64,000 bases of DNA from an uncultured Clostridia bacterium (GCA_947039455.1 CAMQZB010000002.1:22736-86735), one strand, 5' to 3'. Counted from the stretch's first letter, positions 2,844 through 60,060 are shown. Translations and numbers: made by a program. Notes: generated by a model from the letters alone, not told the origin.

Positions 2844-2906
2844 GATTGTTAATTTTTCATTTTCGTGCTATGATAGTAAATGTTAAAGAAAACTAAGGAG
2901 AAAACC

Positions 2907-3578
2907 GTGAATATAAACAGAATTTTAGTAGTAGACGATGATGAAAATATAGGAAATTTAATTGAAGAAATATTAGTGAGAGAAGGGTATTTAGTGACGC
3001 GAGCCTATTCGGGAAGTGAAGCATTGCTAATGGTTGAGAAAGAAAAACCTAACTTAATAATATTGGATTTAATGTTGCCAGGAGTAACGGGTGAGAGGGT
3101 AATGGAGAAAATCGTTAATATCCCTGTTATAGTTTTAAGTGCAAAAATCTCAGTTGAAGATAAAGTGAATTTATTGTCTTTAGGGGCAAATGATTACATG
3201 ACAAAACCTTTTGAAATCAAAGAACTTCTTGCAAGAGTAGCAGTGCAATTACGAATAAAACCAACAAAAATGGAACAAAACAACCTATATTTTCAAGATA
3301 TTTCTATTGATTGTGAAGGTAAAATAGTGAAGGTTAAAGAATCGGAAATTCATCTTACGAAAACTGAATTTTCTATACTTGAAATACTTATGAGAAACAG
3401 TAAAATCGTAGTTACAAAATCAAAATTACTTGATTTATTAAGTCTTGAAAATATAGAAATATACGATAATTCTTTAAAAGTTCATATCAGTCACTTGAGA
3501 ACTAAATTAAAAGAAAAGTCAAATCATGATTATATTGAAGCTGTTTGGGGCGTAGGATTTAAATTAAACAATAAATAA
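2907..3578 (+). CDS. OmpR-family two-component response regulator
   Basis: Receiver domain (ILVVDDDENI...LDLMLPG...SAK) plus a winged-helix C-terminus (LTKTEFSILE...HISHLRTKL...VWGVGFKL). GTG at 2907 lies 6 nt after AAGGAG, so I prefer it over the track ATG at 2880. Confidence 0.85.
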   Translation: MNINRILVVDDDENIGNLIEEILVREGYLVTRAYSGSEALLMVEKEKPNLIILDLMLPGVTGERVMEKIVNIPVIVLSAKISVEDKVNLLSLGANDYMTKPFEIKELLARVAVQLRIKPTKMEQNNLYFQDISIDCEGKIVKVKESEIHLTKTEFSILEILMRNSKIVVTKSKLLDLLSLENIEIYDNSLKVHISHLRTKLKEKSNHDYIEAVWGVGFKLNNK

Positions 3579-3663
3579 ATTAACCTTTTCTTTACTAATT
3601 TATTAACTGGTTTTTTAATGGTTTTTAACTATTATATAAGCATAACAAATACGGAGGAATAAA

Positions 3664-4572
3664 ATGGAATATGTTTTAGAAACAAAAAGTCTAACGAAAA
3701 AATACCGTAATTTTTACGCTTTGAAAAATCTTAATATGAGAGTTGAAAAGGGTGCTATTTATGGATTTGTTGGAAGAAATGGAGCGGGAAAAACTACCCT
3801 TATAAGAGTACTTTGCGGATTGCAAGATACTAATTTAGGTGAATATGCCCTGTTTGGAAAATGGGGTAAAGAGAAACAAGCTGAACGAGAGAAAATGAGC
3901 GGAGTAGTTGAAACCCCTTCGATTTATCTTGGAATGACAGCTGAAGATAATATCAAAATACAATATAAAACACTTGGAATACCAAGTTTTGATGGTATTG
4001 ATGAAATACTTAAAACGGTTGGATTGTCTAATACTGGAAAGAAAAAAGCAAAGAATTTTTCACTTGGAATGAAACAAAGATTAGGCATCGCAATAGCGTT
4101 AGTTGGAAATCCTGACTTGCTTTTACTAGACGAGCCAATCAATGGACTAGACCCACAAGGAATTGTTGAAATACGTGAATTGATATTGAAATTAAACAAA
4201 GAAAGAGGAATTACTATTTTAATTTCAAGTCATATCTTAGGTGAATTATCAAAGATTGCAACACATTATGGTTTCATAAACAAAGGCTCAATGGTAGCGG
4301 AAATGAGTGCAAAACAGTTATTCGAAAAATGCAGGAAATGTACGAAATTAGAAGTAACTGATATAAAAAGCCTTTCGGTAGTTCTTGAGAAAGATAATTT
4401 TGAATATAAAGTAATTACAGATACCCAAGCGGAGATTTATGGTGATGTTATGGTAACTGACCTTGCTATTAAACTGCAAAAATTAGGCTGTAACATAGTC
4501 AAAATTACGGAAAATGACGAAGATTTAGAGAGCTTCTACATTAACTTAGTAGGGGGTGGCGAAAATGAATAA
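3664..4572 (+). CDS. ABC transporter ATP-binding protein (ABC-2/lantibiotic-immunity-like subtype)
   Basis: Walker A GRNGAGKTT, signature FSLGMKQRL, Walker B LLLLDEP, H-loop SSH. Confidence 0.9.
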   Translation: MEYVLETKSLTKKYRNFYALKNLNMRVEKGAIYGFVGRNGAGKTTLIRVLCGLQDTNLGEYALFGKWGKEKQAEREKMSGVVETPSIYLGMTAEDNIKIQYKTLGIPSFDGIDEILKTVGLSNTGKKKAKNFSLGMKQRLGIAIALVGNPDLLLLDEPINGLDPQGIVEIRELILKLNKERGITILISSHILGELSKIATHYGFINKGSMVAEMSAKQLFEKCRKCTKLEVTDIKSLSVVLEKDNFEYKVITDTQAEIYGDVMVTDLAIKLQKLGCNIVKITENDEDLESFYINLVGGGENE

Positions 4573-5428
4573 ATTATTATCTGCAAATTTATATAGGTTA
4601 AAGAAAAACAAGACGTTTTATGCAGGATTTGCAATATATTTCGTGTATTTTTTATATATAACTACTGAATTTATCACTGCTGAAAAAGGCGGATTTCCAC
4701 GAGATATTGGAGATTTATTATATATAGCATTCACGCCAACACAATATATAATGTTTTTCCCACTGGTCGTAGGTGTAATTTGTTCGCTGTTTATTACCGA
4801 AGATTTTCAAAGTGGAGCGGTGCGAAACAAGGTAATTGTTGGAAGAACAAAAACCCAAATATATCTAAGCAATTTTATTACAACTATGTTTATTTGCATG
4901 TTTTATTACACAATTTATCTAATATTATCATTCACAATAGGGGGATTGTTGCTAGGGTATGGAACTGAAGGCGAAACGATAGATTTTGCAAAAACAATAA
5001 TAGTATCCTATGGAATTGTGATATCATATTCAGCAGTAATTGCGTTTATATCAATGATAATCAAAAACAGCACATTCAGCGTTATAGCAACGGTCGTGAT
5101 ATTTGTATTGACTGCAGGAGTAGCAATTAATTTAATATACAAATTAGATTTACCAGATACCTATATTGCAAGCATATGGGGAAATGGTGCATTAGTTGAA
5201 AAAGAGGTAGAGAATTTTATGCAGTTGTCACCAAAAATGAATGAATTAGCAAGATTCTTCACTAAATTAATGCCATCAGGACAAGTGAATTATCTACTTT
5301 CTACAAACTATCCACTTTCTGAAACAGTAAATGGAGTAAGCTGGATAATGCTGCTATACTCAGGACTTGTTGTAACCGTTACGAACTTAGTGGGGTTATT
5401 TATATTTAAAAAGACAGATATAAAGTAG
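4565..5428 (+). CDS. ABC-2 type transporter permease
   Basis: About 6 hydrophobic spans. The N-terminus MNKLLSANLYRLKKNK is typical of ABC-2 permeases. ATG at 4565 overlaps the ATPase stop (ATGA) and follows GGGGGTGG. Confidence 0.75.
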   Translation: MNKLLSANLYRLKKNKTFYAGFAIYFVYFLYITTEFITAEKGGFPRDIGDLLYIAFTPTQYIMFFPLVVGVICSLFITEDFQSGAVRNKVIVGRTKTQIYLSNFITTMFICMFYYTIYLILSFTIGGLLLGYGTEGETIDFAKTIIVSYGIVISYSAVIAFISMIIKNSTFSVIATVVIFVLTAGVAINLIYKLDLPDTYIASIWGNGALVEKEVENFMQLSPKMNELARFFTKLMPSGQVNYLLSTNYPLSETVNGVSWIMLLYSGLVVTVTNLVGLFIFKKTDIK

Positions 5429-5454
5429 TAAATTAAATCGAAAAGGAGAGTTTT

Positions 5455-6336
5455 ATGGAGTGGTTAAAAGTAGTTGTTTTGGTTCTTTCAGTATTATTAG
5501 TAGCGGTTGTGGTGAAATTAATTCTACTGAAAAAAGCTATAAAGGATCTTGACAAATTAATAGTAAAACGTGTTGAAAACAAAGAAAATCAATCACTCTA
5601 TACAAATTCTAGCGACAAAGATTTAAAAAAACTTGCAGTAACATTGAATAGCGAATTAGTAGAATTGCAAAATGAACGGTTAAAATATCAAAGCGGTGAT
5701 AGCGCGTTAATGACTGGGATTACTAATATAACTCACGACTTGCGAACGCCACTTACAGCTATGAAAGGCTATCTAGAACTAATTGAATTAGAAGAAAAAT
5801 CCGAGAAATTAGCGGAGTATTTAACCATAATAAAAACTAGATGCAACAAGATGGAAGAACTTACAGCGGAACTGTTTAAGTTCACTTTGCTAGAGAGCGT
5901 GTCGGAAGAAATTTGCTTTGAAAATATTAATGTTAATAGTGTATTAGAAGAAAGCCTAGCGGAATTATATGGTGCATTTATAGAAAAGAATATCACTCCA
6001 AAAGTGAATATTACTGATACGAAAATACAAAAAATATTAGGCAAAAAACAGCTTTCTACAGTGTTCACCAACATAATTTCAAATGCAGTTAAATACAGTG
6101 ATGGCGACTTTTTTGTAGAGCTAAATACTGATGGTAAAATCACATTTACAAACACTGCAAAAGATCTAGACGAAGTATCGGTAGGAAAACTCTTTGACAG
6201 GTTTTTTACCGTAAACTCAGCCCACAACTCAAGCGGTCTAGGGCTATCAATAGCAAAAACTCTAATTCTCCAAATGAACGGAACCATCGATGCAACATAC
6301 TACAAAGATAAATTAATAATTACAATAATATTTTAG
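5455..6336 (+). CDS. sensor histidine kinase (short, single N-terminal TM, intramembrane-sensing type)
   Basis: H-box ITHDLRTPLTAMKGY, N-box ISNAVKYS, G-box SSGLGLSIAK. There is only one N-terminal TM segment before the DHp domain. Confidence 0.9.
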   Translation: MEWLKVVVLVLSVLLVAVVVKLILLKKAIKDLDKLIVKRVENKENQSLYTNSSDKDLKKLAVTLNSELVELQNERLKYQSGDSALMTGITNITHDLRTPLTAMKGYLELIELEEKSEKLAEYLTIIKTRCNKMEELTAELFKFTLLESVSEEICFENINVNSVLEESLAELYGAFIEKNITPKVNITDTKIQKILGKKQLSTVFTNIISNAVKYSDGDFFVELNTDGKITFTNTAKDLDEVSVGKLFDRFFTVNSAHNSSGLGLSIAKTLILQMNGTIDATYYKDKLIITIIF

Positions 6337-6348
6337 TTAAACAAATCC

Positions 6349-6380
6349 AAAAGGCTATACCAATCGGTATAGCCTTTTTT
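6349..6380 (+). terminator. rho-independent terminator after the histidine kinase
   Basis: GGCTATACC (6353-6361), loop AATC, GGTATAGCC (6366-6374), then TTTTTT (6375-6380). Confidence 0.9.
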
Positions 6381-6391
6381 ATATATGTAAA

Positions 6392-6447
6392 CCCAAAACC
6401 CAAAACCCAAAACCCAAAACCCAAAACCCAAAACCCAAAACCCAAAA
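6392..6447. repeat. perfect heptanucleotide microsatellite (CCCAAAA)x8, i.e. (TTTTGGG)x8 on the - strand
   Basis: Counted directly: 56 bp made of eight uninterrupted CCCAAAA units. Confidence 0.98.
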
Positions 6448-6457
6448 TTGAAATTTT

Positions 6458-6679
6458 AAAATCCAAATAAAAACCTCACCATAAGTAAACCCTACGGGGT
6501 CTTGGGGTATCACCCCAAGTGGTTGGGGTCTGGGGAATCCCAAATTCCCAGTGGTTTTGCAACTTTTGCCACCCAAAAGTTGACCGCGTGAGAAACATAA
6601 AAACCAAGCTGCCAAACATACATCATAATAGCTATTAAAGACCCCAAAATTAAAACCACTACAAAAATCCAAATAAAAA
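6458..6679. repeat. 16-bp perfect direct repeat AAAATCCAAATAAAAA (6458-6473 and 6664-6679) bracketing a GC-rich hairpin core
   Basis: Both copies were read directly. Each is preceded by CCCAAAATT(G/A)AAA (6441 and 6642), which gives roughly 40-bp imperfect direct repeats. Confidence 0.9.
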
Positions 6680-6752
6680 ATCATTACATAAAAACAAAAC
6701 TCAAAACCAAAATAAAGTTCTAATTTGTCCAAGTTGTCAATATACTTTAAGT

Positions 6753-7586
6753 ATGATTAAAAGTTTATTGGAAAACTCAATAGGGATAGAGATTGACACA
6801 AAAAATCTCACGGAAGTAAGAGTGCGAAAAGGTCTACCTATCGTTCTATCTTACGGTGTTATTATGAAAACTCTCAATTCTCATAATAAAGAAATTTTAG
6901 GAACAAGCGAAATAATCTCATCAATAATTGCTACTGTTACGGAAAATTCTTTCTACGCATTTGAGGATAAATTTGCAAGAGGATTTGTAGATTATCAAGG
7001 AGCAAAAATAGCAATTTGCGGTGAAGGAGTATATAAAAATAAACAGCTAATCTCATTTAAAAACATCACATCGCTAGCAATAAGAATACCAAGAGCAGTA
7101 TTAGGAATTGCTGATAAAATAGTAAAAGCAACAGAGAACGGTGAGTTATCTTGCCTAATAATAGGAAAAACTGCCACAGGAAAAACTACAATATTGCGTG
7201 ATTTTGCACACTCTATTAAAGGCAAAAACATAGTAGTAATTGACGAACGTGGGGAGATATATTTAGGTCAAAAAAGTTTGGGTGAATATGCTGATATATT
7301 GGAGAGCGTAGATAAAGAAACTGGGATTATGCTTGCAATTCGTGGTCTTAATCCAGACATAATTATATGCGATGAGCTATATACATATAATGAGATGAAA
7401 GAAATGTACCGTTGTAAACTAGCAGGGATCAGCGTGATTTCTACTTATCATGGTGACAACATTCAGTCAATATTAAACAGCAAAATTTTTGTTGAAGGGG
7501 TGTTTGATAGGTTTGTTGTGCTAGAAAAAACTAGAGGACGAGGTGATGTTTTTGCAATCTATGATAATAAGGGGGAGCGAATATGA
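6753..7586 (+). CDS. spoIIIAA: stage III sporulation protein AA (AAA-type ATPase)
   Basis: Walker A GKTATGKTT and Walker B IIICDE. It is the first of eight co-oriented genes with the sizes and order of spoIIIAA-AH. There is no obvious SD sequence before the ATG. Confidence 0.85.
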   Translation: MIKSLLENSIGIEIDTKNLTEVRVRKGLPIVLSYGVIMKTLNSHNKEILGTSEIISSIIATVTENSFYAFEDKFARGFVDYQGAKIAICGEGVYKNKQLISFKNITSLAIRIPRAVLGIADKIVKATENGELSCLIIGKTATGKTTILRDFAHSIKGKNIVVIDERGEIYLGQKSLGEYADILESVDKETGIMLAIRGLNPDIIICDELYTYNEMKEMYRCKLAGISVISTYHGDNIQSILNSKIFVEGVFDRFVVLEKTRGRGDVFAIYDNKGERI

Positions 7587-15497: not shown

Positions 15498-15526
15498 TTG
15501 ATATTTATATGAATTTATGTTATAAT
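15498..15526 (+). promoter_or_regulatory. near-consensus sigma-A promoter driving the OLE RNA-oapA unit
   Basis: TTGATA (15498-15503), 17-nt spacer, then TGtTATAAT (TATAAT at 15521-15526). Confidence 0.7.
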
Positions 15527-15532
15527 AATGAT

Positions 15533-16175
15533 ATGGTGGTGCAGTATTCTAGTCAGACCAGTTTGCTTTGAAAACGGGGTTAAAATACCGGAAAGGGCAT
15601 ATCGATGAAGTTTCTTGTGCGTGCTTCCGTTGCCCAAACGGGGGGTGCGTACTGGGAGTTAAGGATTATGGGCGTGTCGCAACGGCATGCGACGGGCGAC
15701 CCATTTTCCGTGGAGGCTCAACCTTGTGGGATGCAAATAATTAGATCCTATGAATTGAGATTAAACCTGTCTCGTGGCATTATTAAGCTGCGAACAGTGT
15801 AGCCTGCCTTGAGTGAACATAGCGGATTGAGGAACAACGTATAATTCGGTAGGCCATCGAAGAATTACGATTGCTTTGTGAAACTATGATTTGCAAAAGA
15901 GGCTGGAAGTGAGGTGGTTTGCCAAGGAAAGCTTCTAGACTGTGTGCACAGCATAAATATATTGGGGATTAAAGTGTGGTCTAAAAGGCGATTCAGTTTT
16001 ACATTTGGCGACAGTGTAATGTTTCATTTTAAGGGAAACCGCTCACATCGGTGACGATGAGTATGATACAAGGAAACCTTACTGAACCTAAGCCGCAAAG
16101 TTTACTCAATATATTACCACCTAATTTTGAAACATTTCAAGGACAATTTTTGTTACAATATGAGAATTGTCCTTG
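15533..16175 (+). ncRNA. ole: OLE (ornate, large, extremophilic) RNA
   Basis: About 640 nt with no RBS-preceded ORF, and visibly more G+C-rich than its flanks. It has many local helices (for example GTCGCA/TGCGAC at 15676-15693) and a closing hairpin at 16139-16174. It lies between ispA and a 4-TM protein, followed by tlyA-nadK-argR-recN, which is the neighbourhood described for OLE RNA. I did not align it to a covariance model. Confidence 0.75.
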
Positions 16176-33239: not shown

Positions 33240-33280
33240 ACATATAACCACACATAAATAAGAAAGCTACCCAACAAAAA

Positions 33281-33318
33281 AACACCCAAACAAAACAAAA
33301 ACACCCAAACAAAAATAA
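33281..33318. repeat. tandem duplication of a 19-bp A/C-only unit (AACACCCAAACAAAACAAA / AACACCCAAACAAAAATAA)
   Basis: Read directly. The unit is a degenerate relative of the CCCAAAA repeat at 6392-6447. Confidence 0.85.
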
Positions 33319-33442
33319 GAAACCCACCAAAATGGCGTTGGAAATAAAACAACAGTATTTAAAAGAGTCAAGGGGCTATGCTCCTTGTTGGGGTTTGGGG
33401 CGAATAGCCCCATCTAACTTAATAAAACAATCCAAAAAACAA

Positions 33443-33471
33443 CAAAAAAAAGATGATAAATAAATATCATC
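33443..33471 (-). terminator. rho-independent terminator of the alcohol dehydrogenase gene (- strand)
   Basis: AGATGATA / TATCATCT stem. The A-run on the + strand reads as a T-run on the - strand. Confidence 0.75.
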
Positions 33472-43303: not shown

Positions 43304-43995
43304 ATTTAATGTCAAGTGCTTCAAGTGAAGAAGTAAATACAGCCTACCAAGCTAGAAAATCACAATTACGTGAAGATATGTTCTTGGAAGGAGTAGCAGG
43401 CAACAACGCAGCGAGAGATCTTACTGCCCTTGAAGATGCTTACCGTGGTTATCTTGATTATTCAAAGTATGATTCTAGTAATAATTCAACAAACAGTACA
43501 GGCGGAACAACTGTCTATGACGATGTTGAAGCATTTGTAAAAGCTGGAAAATTAAACGAAGCCCAAAGTCATCTTGATAACATACAAACAAGAGACGGAA
43601 GCTGGCATTATTTCCAAGCAATGATATATTACAAAAAAGATTGGTATACAGATTGCAAGAAACATCTTGAAAAAGCATTGCAACTTGACAGTGGAAACAC
43701 AAAATATAGAGAAACTTTAAGCAAACTATCTGAAAAAATGTCAGGTGGTCGTGCTCAACCAGTTAATAGACAAAATCCAAACGGACAAAATCAAAACGCA
43801 CAGAACCCAAATGGACAAAATCCAAACGGAAAACAAGGCGAATGGTGGAAAGAAAACGATAACGTAGACAACAATGGTCAACCTGATTGGAACGAAAACA
43901 ATAGACAAATGGGTGGCTGTAATGAGAGCATGAATTGTTGTACGCAAATGTTGTGTATGAACCTATTCTGCAACTGTTGTGGTGGAGGCTGTTAG
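43276..43995 (+). CDS. degenerate J-domain-like / TPR-like protein with Q/N/P repeats and a Cys-rich C-terminus
   Basis: LFEILNL..SASSEEVNTAYQARKSQL resembles J-domain helices I-II, but no HPD tripeptide follows. The middle is a TPR-like helical segment. NPNGQ-type repeats come next. The last 27 residues contain 8 Cys. Confidence 0.6.
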   Translation: MQTRLFEILNLMSSASSEEVNTAYQARKSQLREDMFLEGVAGNNAARDLTALEDAYRGYLDYSKYDSSNNSTNSTGGTTVYDDVEAFVKAGKLNEAQSHLDNIQTRDGSWHYFQAMIYYKKDWYTDCKKHLEKALQLDSGNTKYRETLSKLSEKMSGGRAQPVNRQNPNGQNQNAQNPNGQNPNGKQGEWWKENDNVDNNGQPDWNENNRQMGGCNESMNCCTQMLCMNLFCNCCGGGC

Positions 43996-44556: not shown

Positions 44557-44715
44557 TTATATTAACATGAAAATCTTTAAAATACCCATAAAACACACCT
44601 AAACTAAAATAAAAGTAAACAATCGATAAAAAGAGAAAATTAGTAACAAAAATCCTATTGCATAACCAACAAAAAGCAAATATAATGTATTTATCTCATA
44701 TTAGGAGGCGTACAT

Positions 44716-45063: not shown

Positions 45064-45250
45064 TAACAGTAGTCGAAATAAAGATACAAATAAAGACATG
45101 AAAAAGTATACTAACAATTGCCCAAACAACACACAAAAATCAATAAAAAATAACACATAAAAACATATAAATAAAGATAAACCTAAAGAGAGAAATAAAA
45201 CAGGTTAAATATCTTTGACGAAATGTAATAAGATAAGTTATAATAAAAGT

Positions 45251-59709: not shown

Positions 59710-60060
59710 GGGGGTGTACCGGATTCGATTGGGAAGATAAGGTGCTTTGTATAAGCGTGTCGAAGGCTCGGCTTCGTTAAAACGGAAACAATTTTAATTG
59801 CTAACAGAAATACTGTAGCTTTAGCTGCCTAGTCAGCTTTTGTCGTTTGGAGTAACCTACGGACTCAACTCGGCATCAATTTAGTAGGGTACATGTGAGA
59901 GCAGGAGTGATCTAGCCTACCTCACAGGACACAAAGCGGATTCGTCAGTATAGGATTATGTCGTTGTAAGCCGTACTTGATGTAAAAATTAGCGACTACA
60001 CACGTAGAAGACTTTGTGTCGCTTTCCAACACAGGGGTTCAACTCCCCTCACCTCCACCA
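59710..60060 (+). ncRNA. ssrA: transfer-messenger RNA (tmRNA)
   Basis: The 5' end GGGGGTGTACCGGATTCGA pairs with the 3' end GGGGTTCAACTCCCCTCACCTCCACCA (tRNA-Ala-like acceptor/T arm, encoded CCA). The tag reading frame GCT AAC AGA AAT ACT GTA GCT TTA GCT GCC TAG (59800-59832) encodes ANRNTVALAA. Confidence 0.97.

Follow-up and report, generated by a model that had tools for sequence, protein, structure and literature searches.

LhrC of Listeria monocytogenes (LhrC1-5) is a multicopy small RNA (sRNA) that carries redundant UCCC sites in its loops and is controlled by the two-component system LisRK (PMC4132741). The UCCC motif is known in low-GC sRNAs (PMC2790875). Intergenic repeats offer other comparisons. 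REPs are dispersed and abundant (PMC3116915), and REP, BIME and REPIN elements are mobilized by RAYT transposases (PMC3116915, PMC3337134). The STAR elements of Staphylococcus aureus are GC-rich intergenic repeats that expand and contract and are conserved by locus and lineage (PMC3532100). Here we set beside these systems an element from a 64,000-nucleotide (nt) stretch of DNA, called the window below, which comes from an uncultured, spore-forming Clostridia bacterium and is part of a 186-kb ENA metagenome scaffold (RIIS20-1, SAMEA5316449, scaffold_21). The element sits in the 417-nt spacer that leads from a histidine kinase gene to spoIIIAA. It is a strain-variable non-coding tandem repeat, and a 136-nt block of its unit, a leader followed by three hairpins, is probably a selectively constrained, functional non-coding element, to judge from how little it differs between strains. 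The block appears to be a lineage-specific structured element and may most plausibly be a multicopy small structured RNA, a reading that we put forward tentatively.

Related contigs were retrieved by way of the flanking proteins, and two of them, L002 and L072, are sister strains from two other samples. The spoIIIAA gene of L002 has 98.4% nucleotide identity to that of the window; the kinase of L072 has 95% amino acid identity, in an identical gene order. The spacer is made up of the following features, with identities taken from the alignment of the window with L072:

6337-6388: kinase operon terminator segment, 51/52 identical to L072
6349-6378, + strand: bidirectional intrinsic terminator of the kinase operon, a 13-bp stem and a T run
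6389-6447: perfect heptamer microsatellite, (AAACCCA) x 8.4 with 100% matches, reading (TTTTGGG)n on the - strand; the tract is 68% identical to L072
6454-6589, listed on the + strand as the candidate functional strand: constrained block, an A-rich leader of about 40 nt and the hairpin core, ending GACCGCGT; 135/136 identical to L072 copy 1
6501-6519: hairpin 1, CTTGGGGT-ATC-ACCCCAAG, a perfect 8-bp stem with arms at 6501-6508 and 6512-6519
6530-6551: hairpin 2, CTGGGGAAT...ATTCCCAG, that is, CTGGGGAAT-CCCAA-ATT(-)CCCAG, with one bulged G
6560-6582: hairpin 3, CAACTTTTG-CCACC-CAAAAGTTG, a perfect 9-bp stem with arms at 6560-6568 and 6574-6582, extended by GGT/ACC
6590-6662: A-rich spacer ("tail B"), containing AGACCCC...AACCAC, which is complementary to module flanks in the window strain only
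6663-6717: start of the next unit, truncated and degenerate, including the right 16-nt repeat at 6664-6679
6590-6717: A-rich spacer after the core, taken as one segment, 87.5% identical to L072 (of 128 aligned columns, 12 are mismatches and 4 are gaps)
6718-6752, + strand: spoIIIAA-proximal region, 35/35 identical to L072 and conserved also in the element-free relative L003

The identity of the block to L072 can be judged against the two flanking genes, in which third codon positions are identical at 0.915 and 0.896 between the window and L072. At a neutral divergence of 8.5-10%, about 12-14 differences would be expected in 136 nt, against the one observed, and the Poisson probability of one difference or fewer is 1e-4 to 2e-5. 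In this alignment the block appears to be conserved like the adjacent terminator and promoter, while the spacer and the heptamer tract appear to drift like neutral DNA. Within L002, the paralogous cores are 103/104 identical, compared to 77% for tail A against tail B. The case also exemplifies a general test for intergenic repeats: the core is set against the spacers of the same repeat and against synonymous sites, so that constrained parts can be told from drifting ones.

The two changes found in the hairpin region itself lie in loops. Hairpin 1 shows no variation in the four of four copies that cover it. Hairpin 2 has a single variant, in its loop (CCCAAA to CCCCAA in L002 copy A), and so does hairpin 3 (CCACCC to CCATCC in both L072 copies that cover it). 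A third substitution, just 5' of hairpin 1, changes a C-G pair to U-G in the predicted + strand helix. A preliminary description, made from the window alone, had allowed that the hairpins might not be conserved in related copies; they are conserved in both L002 and L072.

One could ask whether the same pattern would arise with no function at all, in a neutral minisatellite whose cores stay alike only through concerted evolution, by gene conversion or self-correction of palindromes. Conversion of cores does occur. The hairpin 3 loop change is common to both covering L072 copies and not to orthologues, which points to gene conversion between cores, and the cores do show concerted evolution within the array. 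The copy number is unstable, the assemblies break in the array and the adjoining heptamer tract is undergoing active slippage, all of which would suit a minisatellite. However, conversion homogenizes copies within a genome and not between strains. It leaves between-strain divergence unlowered, so the single difference in the block, compared to the 12-14 expected, is most simply explained by purifying selection. Conversion tracts would also need to end exactly at the block edges in every copy and every strain, and the 40-nt leader is non-palindromic, yet identical at 40/40 positions between the window and L072 copy 1. A neutral minisatellite is, on balance, unlikely.

The direct repeats that flank the core are unit boundaries of a tandem array. 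The 16-nt repeat AAAATCCAAATAAAAA occurs exactly at 6458-6473 and 6664-6679, and the 13-mers CCCAAAATTGAAA and CCCAAAATTAAAA, at 6441 and 6643, form a second pair with one mismatch. The preliminary description had offered two explanations, an insertion with target duplication or a repeat unit of about 200 bp present in 1.2 copies. The second is borne out by the sister strains, where tandem units occur in two to three copies or more. The L002 contig begins inside a hairpin core and has two units 233 nt apart (at least 2.2 units). In L072 the units are 208 nt apart, with a 100-N scaffold gap within the array, and there are at least 2-3 copies. The window holds 1.2 units, that is, a single complete unit and the truncated start of the next. 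Across the strains the units run head-to-tail with a period of 206-233 bp, and their number differs between strains, as in a variable-number tandem repeat (VNTR) or minisatellite. Tandem Repeats Finder did not report the 233-nt period in L002, which has only about two diverged copies; the array was established by alignment.

The spacers fall into two types that are common to the strains, so the duplication predates the strain split. Copy A of L002 is similar to copy 1 of L072, and the window unit is nearly identical to copy B of L002 and resembles the last L072 copy. The 1.2 units of the window could reflect either a true contraction or a collapse in assembly. Short-read assemblies break or collapse at the array (one contig end, one scaffold gap), so copy numbers from metagenome-assembled genomes (MAGs) are unreliable here. 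No second copy of the unit or the core was found in the 64-kb window by short-word BLAST and mismatch-tolerant motif searches. The earlier possibility of a single-copy sequence with no homologues thus holds in one respect, one locus per 64 kb, and fails in the other, for homologues exist, in three closely related strains only. A CRISPR array was considered and rejected, because the conserved part is 136 nt long and the "spacers" are homologous to one another.

The alternative of an insertion fared worse. A miniature inverted-repeat transposable element (MITE) with a target-site duplication would account for direct repeats on both sides of a GC-rich core, but the repeats are the boundaries of successive tandem units, and there are no terminal inverted repeats. 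The window has no second copy, and nothing matching the element turned up among plasmids or phages when their collections were searched with blastn in "distant" mode. An empty site might be seen in L003, which is without the element, but L003 is also without the whole 3.9-kb gene cassette upstream of it. A protein-coding gene on the - strand has in its favor an open reading frame (ORF) of 117 codons, at 6379-6732. It was already suspected of being an artefact of the repeat, and this is well supported: a phmmer search of 1.84 billion representative proteins returned 0 relatives, and extra units with a period of 233 or 208 nt, neither divisible by 3, would shift the frame. Insertion and - strand coding are both effectively refuted. 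A small + strand ORF from GTG 6519 was also rejected as coding, since its variable part has 4 non-synonymous changes to 1 synonymous change and its conserved part is nucleotide-identical (by eye).

The heptamer tract next to the block has a history of its own. Its counterpart in L072 consists of degenerate A/C-rich 7-mers, so the perfect (AAACCCA)n of the window is a recent slippage expansion. The degenerate state of the CCCAAAA tract in L072 also speaks against long-range pairing between the core and this upstream repeat, which the preliminary description had thought conceivable. On the - strand, a G-quadruplex in (TTTTGGG)n is conceivable by the G3N4 rule.

The structural features of the core were all found in the sequence as first described, with coordinates within 1-2 nt. 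Hairpins 1-3 are confirmed, the position of hairpin 3 being off by one base, as are the four GGGG runs at 6496, 6504, 6525 and 6532. The window has 34% G+C, and intergenic G4/C4 clusters occur in it just twice, the element being one of them. A single module, GGGGTCT(T)GGGG-loop-CCCC(A)AGTGGTT, underlies both hairpin 1 and hairpin 2, which are paralogous. In copy 1 (6496-6524) the hairpin is flanked by GGGGT and TGGTT, and copy 2 occupies 6525-6556.

Folding was compared with dinucleotide shuffles for the segment 6454-6592. As + strand RNA it gave z = -3.1, with 1 of 200 shuffles as good, and as + strand DNA z = -4.1, with 0 of 200. The - strand RNA gave z = -2.2, and the whole 417-nt spacer, folded as the + strand, z = -3.4. 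Two parts of the predicted folds did not survive comparison among copies. The long-range helix to AGACCCC...AACCAC was rejected because other copies read AGAAACC or AGAACAC, uncompensated, and the CUCAC/GUGAG helix that closes the minimum free energy fold was rejected because its 3' strand differs in other copies without compensation. The inverted repeats in the A-rich spacer (I4, I5 and I8) are likewise not conserved among copies.

A fold stronger than shuffles, with the larger z-score on the + strand, counts for the tentative reading of the block as an sRNA. The block would then be encoded in variable multicopy as a small structured RNA read from the + strand. Its C-rich loops and linkers (UCCC in hairpin 2, CCACCC in hairpin 3 and ACCCUAC in the leader) could pair with G-rich Shine-Dalgarno regions, as in multicopy sRNAs of Firmicutes such as LhrC, and the RNA may share its regulation with the two-component system next to it. 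The C-rich stretches exposed on the + strand are the hairpin 2 loop AAUCCCAAAUU (UCCC), the hairpin 3 loop CCACC(C) and ACCCUAC in the leader, a common feature of low specificity. Like LhrC, the element repeats a structured unit of about 100 nt in several almost identical copies, and C-rich (UCCC-type) motifs recur redundantly in its loops and linkers, all on one strand. The host is likewise low in GC, and a two-component system that senses envelope or antimicrobial stress lies nearby. Unlike LhrC, it is known from sequence alone, and the scans revealed no clear promoter or canonical terminator. It has no sequence similarity to LhrC or any Rfam family, its copy number varies between strains by tandem expansion, and its stems are unusually G+C-rich and perfect.

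Searches against Rfam 15 at the gathering threshold returned only two RNAs for the whole window, both outside the element: an ornate large extremophilic (OLE) RNA and a transfer-messenger RNA (tmRNA). With the limit relaxed to E <= 10, the best matches in 6250-6850 were terminator look-alikes and miRNA and snoRNA models, at 22-25 bits compared to thresholds of 49-70. Nothing relevant was found at the gathering threshold in 33 related or pattern-hit loci; besides OLE and tmRNA there were only a 16S end and one RT-18 RNA next to a diversity-generating retroelement. A literature search on the motif GGGGTCTGGGG / CCCCAGACCCC returned only unrelated papers on the human insulin VNTR, primers and aptamers. 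The initial notion of an unannotated structured element therefore stands as far as a strongly constrained hairpin block outside any Rfam family is concerned, and it finds no backing from covariation or from a clear promoter or terminator.

A possible link between the block and its surroundings lies in the leader, which carries two short boxes, and in the genes on either side:

2880-6336: cassette of a response regulator, an ABC ATPase, an ABC2 permease and, last, the kinase, by Pfam matches
2880-3578: OmpR-family response regulator of the cassette
5455-6336, + strand: histidine kinase gene (HisKA and HATPase_c domains)
6457-6475, - strand: two 11-bp-phased boxes, GGTTTTTATTT and GGATTTTA (GGTTTTTATTTGGATTTTA), reading TAAAATCC-N3-TAAAAACC on the + strand and overlapping the left 16-nt repeat
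6753-7586, + strand: spoIIIAA, first gene of the spoIIIA operon

The two-component system of the cassette is a module of the antimicrobial-peptide type, that is, one that senses peptide antibiotics. Just 5' of TATTATATAA and the ABC-transporter gene there is a direct repeat, TGGTTTTTTAA / TGGTTTTTAAC, with an 11-bp phase (3599-3630), which is a candidate binding site for the OmpR-family regulator of the cassette. L072 keeps this repeat with one change. The boxes of the leader resemble the direct repeat GGTTTTTTAATGGTTTTTA (3609-3627) in the same spacer between the regulator and ABC-transporter genes. A loose 11-bp-phased GGWTTTT pattern has two sites in 64 kb, one in the promoter region of the ABC operon and one in the leader of the element. 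The leader boxes may serve to bind a response regulator, or they may be phased A-tracts or the T-rich end of a terminator on the - strand.

Several observations weigh against the sRNA reading, and those on the boxes bear on its proposed regulation. The GGWTTTT pattern was derived from both of its sites, the leader box and the ABC box differ at 4/19 positions, and the ABC box is matched just as closely at four other sites in the window. L073, a 60% homologue of the cassette, lacks the box and has TTCTTTAC repeats instead, and the orientation of the leader box would favor transcription of the - strand over the + strand. Covariation is absent among the 5 sequences, in which the stems never vary: compensatory changes were seen in 0/32 predicted pairs, and in one case a C-G pair becomes U-G. 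Consensus scans found no sigma-70-type promoter on either strand in the window or L002, and only 9/12 matches in L072. A canonical terminator is missing from both strands, and each copy has only weak terminator-like sites. Because every stem is perfect Watson-Crick, a DNA-level palindrome fits equally well. The window's one copy may reflect a collapsed assembly, and the element is known from just three closely related strains at one locus.

The terminator-like sites differ in form. On the + strand, hairpin 2 is followed by TGGTTTTG, a weak site, and a 7-bp stem is followed by UGGUUUUG. On the - strand, another weak site consists of CCGTAGGGTTTACTTATGG and then TGAGGTTTTT, with a G-U-containing stem and a T run 5 nt away. 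A sigma-E-like motif seen by eye in the spacer (ACATAAA...CATACATC) was rejected as a promoter, because its -35 part is not conserved (ACACAAA, ACGCAAA).

The boxes are also the basis of another explanation, in which the array acts on the DNA level in cis. It would then hold repeated sites for the cassette's OmpR-family response regulator or a sporulation regulator, or phased A-tracts that curve the DNA, and would modulate the spoIIIA promoter or a divergent one. The likeness of the 11-bp-phased leader boxes to the repeat in the ABC-operon promoter region is consistent with such a role. So are the location of the array, 35-300 bp 5' of the conserved spoIIIA promoter region, and the box-bearing truncated unit retained beside that promoter. 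However, the boxes resemble each other weakly, scoring from the ABC box alone brings up other sites as well, and the second box has diverged in L072 copy 2. Perfect GC-rich hairpins of 8-9 bp are atypical of transcription-factor sites, and spoIIIA operates with no such array in relatives whose SpoIIIAA is 78% or 52% identical. A cis-regulatory array is thus quite doubtful, slightly more so than a neutral repeat.

The spoIIIAA-proximal region, 6718-6752, is probably the promoter of the spoIIIA operon itself, given its conservation, and the array is therefore unlikely to be part of the spoIIIA 5' untranslated region. The 35 nt 5' of spoIIIAA are identical in L072 and nearly identical in L003. 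A sigma-E-like -10 element (AATATACT) and a SpoIIID-like box (TTTGTCCAAG) can be seen by eye in 6718-6760. The called ATG of spoIIIAA (6753) has no visible Shine-Dalgarno sequence, and the true start codon may lie downstream.

How the element came to its present place is suggested by more distant relatives. In L003 (78% amino acid identity in SpoIIIAA), efp lies directly 5' of spoIIIAA across a 175-nt spacer (L003 4705-4879), and neither the cassette nor the element is present. The window shares the upstream genes of L003, an M24 peptidase gene and efp (efp at 2224-2787), so the cassette and array are a 3.9-kb addition in the lineage of the window. Within the spacer, sharing between the window and L003 is limited to the last 35-45 nt 5' of spoIIIAA. 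A relative with 52% SpoIIIAA identity has spoVG upstream and no such array. The cassette homologue in L073 is at another locus, with a phosphofructokinase gene next and no array after the kinase, and the cassette thus appears to move. From these three relatives it follows that the array is no part of the ancestral spoIIIA region and no inherent part of the cassette.

The main rival of an sRNA is a palindromic cluster like the REP and BIME elements, in which GC-rich hairpin modules in an AT-rich spacer act only as hairpins, in DNA or in read-through RNA. Such a cluster could back up the terminator, insulate the sporulation operon from the cassette, stabilize 3' ends or bind nucleoid proteins, and it could be amplified locally by slippage or unequal crossing-over. 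The perfect Watson-Crick palindromic stems and the DNA fold at z = -4.1 fit this explanation well, as do the origin of hairpins 1 and 2 from one module and the location between a terminator and a promoter. The element shares with REP, BIME and REPIN elements its short G+C-rich extragenic palindromes, its mosaic of related hairpin modules and its intergenic place after a terminator. It differs from them in that it occupies one locus per 64 kb, without the many dispersed copies of a REP within the window, and consists of head-to-tail units of 206-233 bp, not inverted REP doublets. It also has no conserved 5' GTAG in each unit; GTAG occurs once, on the - strand beside hairpin 1 (CCCCGTAGGG), whereas hairpins 2 and 3 lack it. 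A tblastn search of the 64-kb window and the retrieved loci with a weak probe, an IS200 TnpA sequence, revealed no Y1/RAYT-like gene. The non-palindromic leader and linkers are conserved like the stems, which a purely thermodynamic role does not require, and a strong canonical terminator already stands 80 nt upstream.

Precedent for expanding and contracting GC-rich intergenic repeats exists in STAR, and this also counts for a palindromic cluster. As in STAR and intergenic VNTRs, the element has G+C-rich repeats in A+T-rich intergenic DNA, present in a strain-variable number and conserved by locus and lineage, and selection is suspected. A STAR repeat measures about 14 nt and its spacers about 40 nt, and such repeats occur at many loci. 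Unlike them, the unit of the element is a 136-nt multi-hairpin block and not a simple interspersed direct repeat; the two were compared by description only.

More for the palindromic cluster comes from other genomes. Collections were scanned with the pattern GGGGTCT-N0-1-GGGG-N3-16-CCMAGTGGTT, which gave 25 genome loci, 40 metagenome loci and 2 viral loci. True hairpins account for about 20 of the 25 genome loci and for many of those from metagenomes; their distal stems differ yet stay complementary, which the scan pattern does not force. Both viral matches and several matches in GC-rich DNA are not hairpins. Module loci lie in multi-hairpin intergenic arrays in a metagenome contig (L055, probably rumen), Lagierella (L005) and Clostridia (L012, L025 and L059), as well as in a MAG labelled "Akkermansia" (five loci) and a bin labelled Uhrbacteria. 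Some adjoin an ACTTTT(CTTT)G...C(AAAG)AAAAGT hairpin that is reminiscent of hairpin 3. Modules with covarying distal stems in the intergenic arrays of other bacteria (L055, L005 and L012/L025/L059), often beside an ACTTTT...AAAAGT hairpin, are what one would expect of a REP-like cluster. On the other side, the module matches are heterogeneous and include the hairpin of a diversity-generating retroelement, a hairpin directly 3' of a probable ribosomal protein S4 gene (identified by translation) and many loci that look like animal-host repeats by composition and repeat content, so that convergence or the ascertainment of the pattern may explain part of the recurrence. The leader, hairpin order, spacer and tail of the window are found in none of the module loci. 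Judged by these sequences, the recurrence would be an unexplained resemblance and not homology, and no cross-phylum family is claimed. A REP-like palindromic cluster is, all told, possible but on the unlikely side, and a multicopy sRNA is the reading that we still prefer.

Some details of the module loci are worth recording in their own right. The module GGGGTCTGGGG-loop-CCCCAGTGGTT, with covarying distal stems, recurs in unrelated bacteria (loci L005-L071). Hairpins that neighbor it also recur across phyla, namely GCAGGGG...CCCCTGC, ACTTTTCTTTG...CAAAGAAAAGT and GTAGGGT...ACCCTAC. Many of the loops at module loci are GAA, AAA or AGA, which gives mini-hairpins of the GCGAAGC type. Positions 1-750 of L030 are a diversity-generating retroelement. 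Its variable repeat is followed by the hairpin GGGGTCTGGGGGCCGCAGCCCCCAGTGGTT at 299-328, then by a repeat that is rich in adenine and resembles a template, and by an RT-18 RNA (671-749, 69 bits).

Other features of the window lie outside the spacer. An OLE RNA at 15520-16136 (+ strand) is full length, with 452 bits against RF01071, and it places the organism among the OLE-carrying anaerobic Firmicutes. The tmRNA gene is at 59710-60060 (+ strand; RF00023, 130.6 bits). The + (gene-coding) strand of intergenic DNA is generally A/C-rich, as at 44560-44700 and 45090-45200, so the A/C richness near the element characterizes the genome, not the element itself. Another intergenic stretch of similar style, at 33240-33470, has a terminator, an A/C-rich low-complexity tract (period 19), a G4-rich hairpin (GGGGCTAT...GTTGGGGTTTGGGGCGAATAGCCCC, 33372-33411) and an 11-nt-periodic A-rich tract. 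It is the sole other intergenic GGGG/CCCC cluster in the window and cannot be aligned to the element. A 15-nt coding repeat inside an ORF (43769-43830, GACAAAATCCAAACG x 4) gives GQNPN-like repeats, and the ORF has a Cys-rich tail (...CCTQMLCMNLFCNCCGGGC).

The most far-reaching proposal would join all of these threads. The block would then represent a new class of multicopy regulatory RNA, with its dosage tuned by tandem expansion and contraction, and the neighboring two-component system would turn on its expression by way of the GGWTTTT boxes. The module GGGGUCU(U)GGGG...CCCC(A)AGUGGUU, with its neighboring ACUUUU...AAAAGU hairpin, would in addition be an undescribed, horizontally spread family behind the intergenic "hairpin forests" of rumen and gut Clostridia, the Uhrbacteria-labelled bin and other bacteria. 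As a whole this proposal is improbable, more so than any of its rivals other than insertion or coding.

The element adjoins a core sporulation operon as well as a sensing module of the antimicrobial-peptide type. Should the block prove to be a functional RNA, it would represent an sRNA family from a little-sampled, OLE-carrying lineage of Clostridia, and its dose would vary between strains through the number of repeats.

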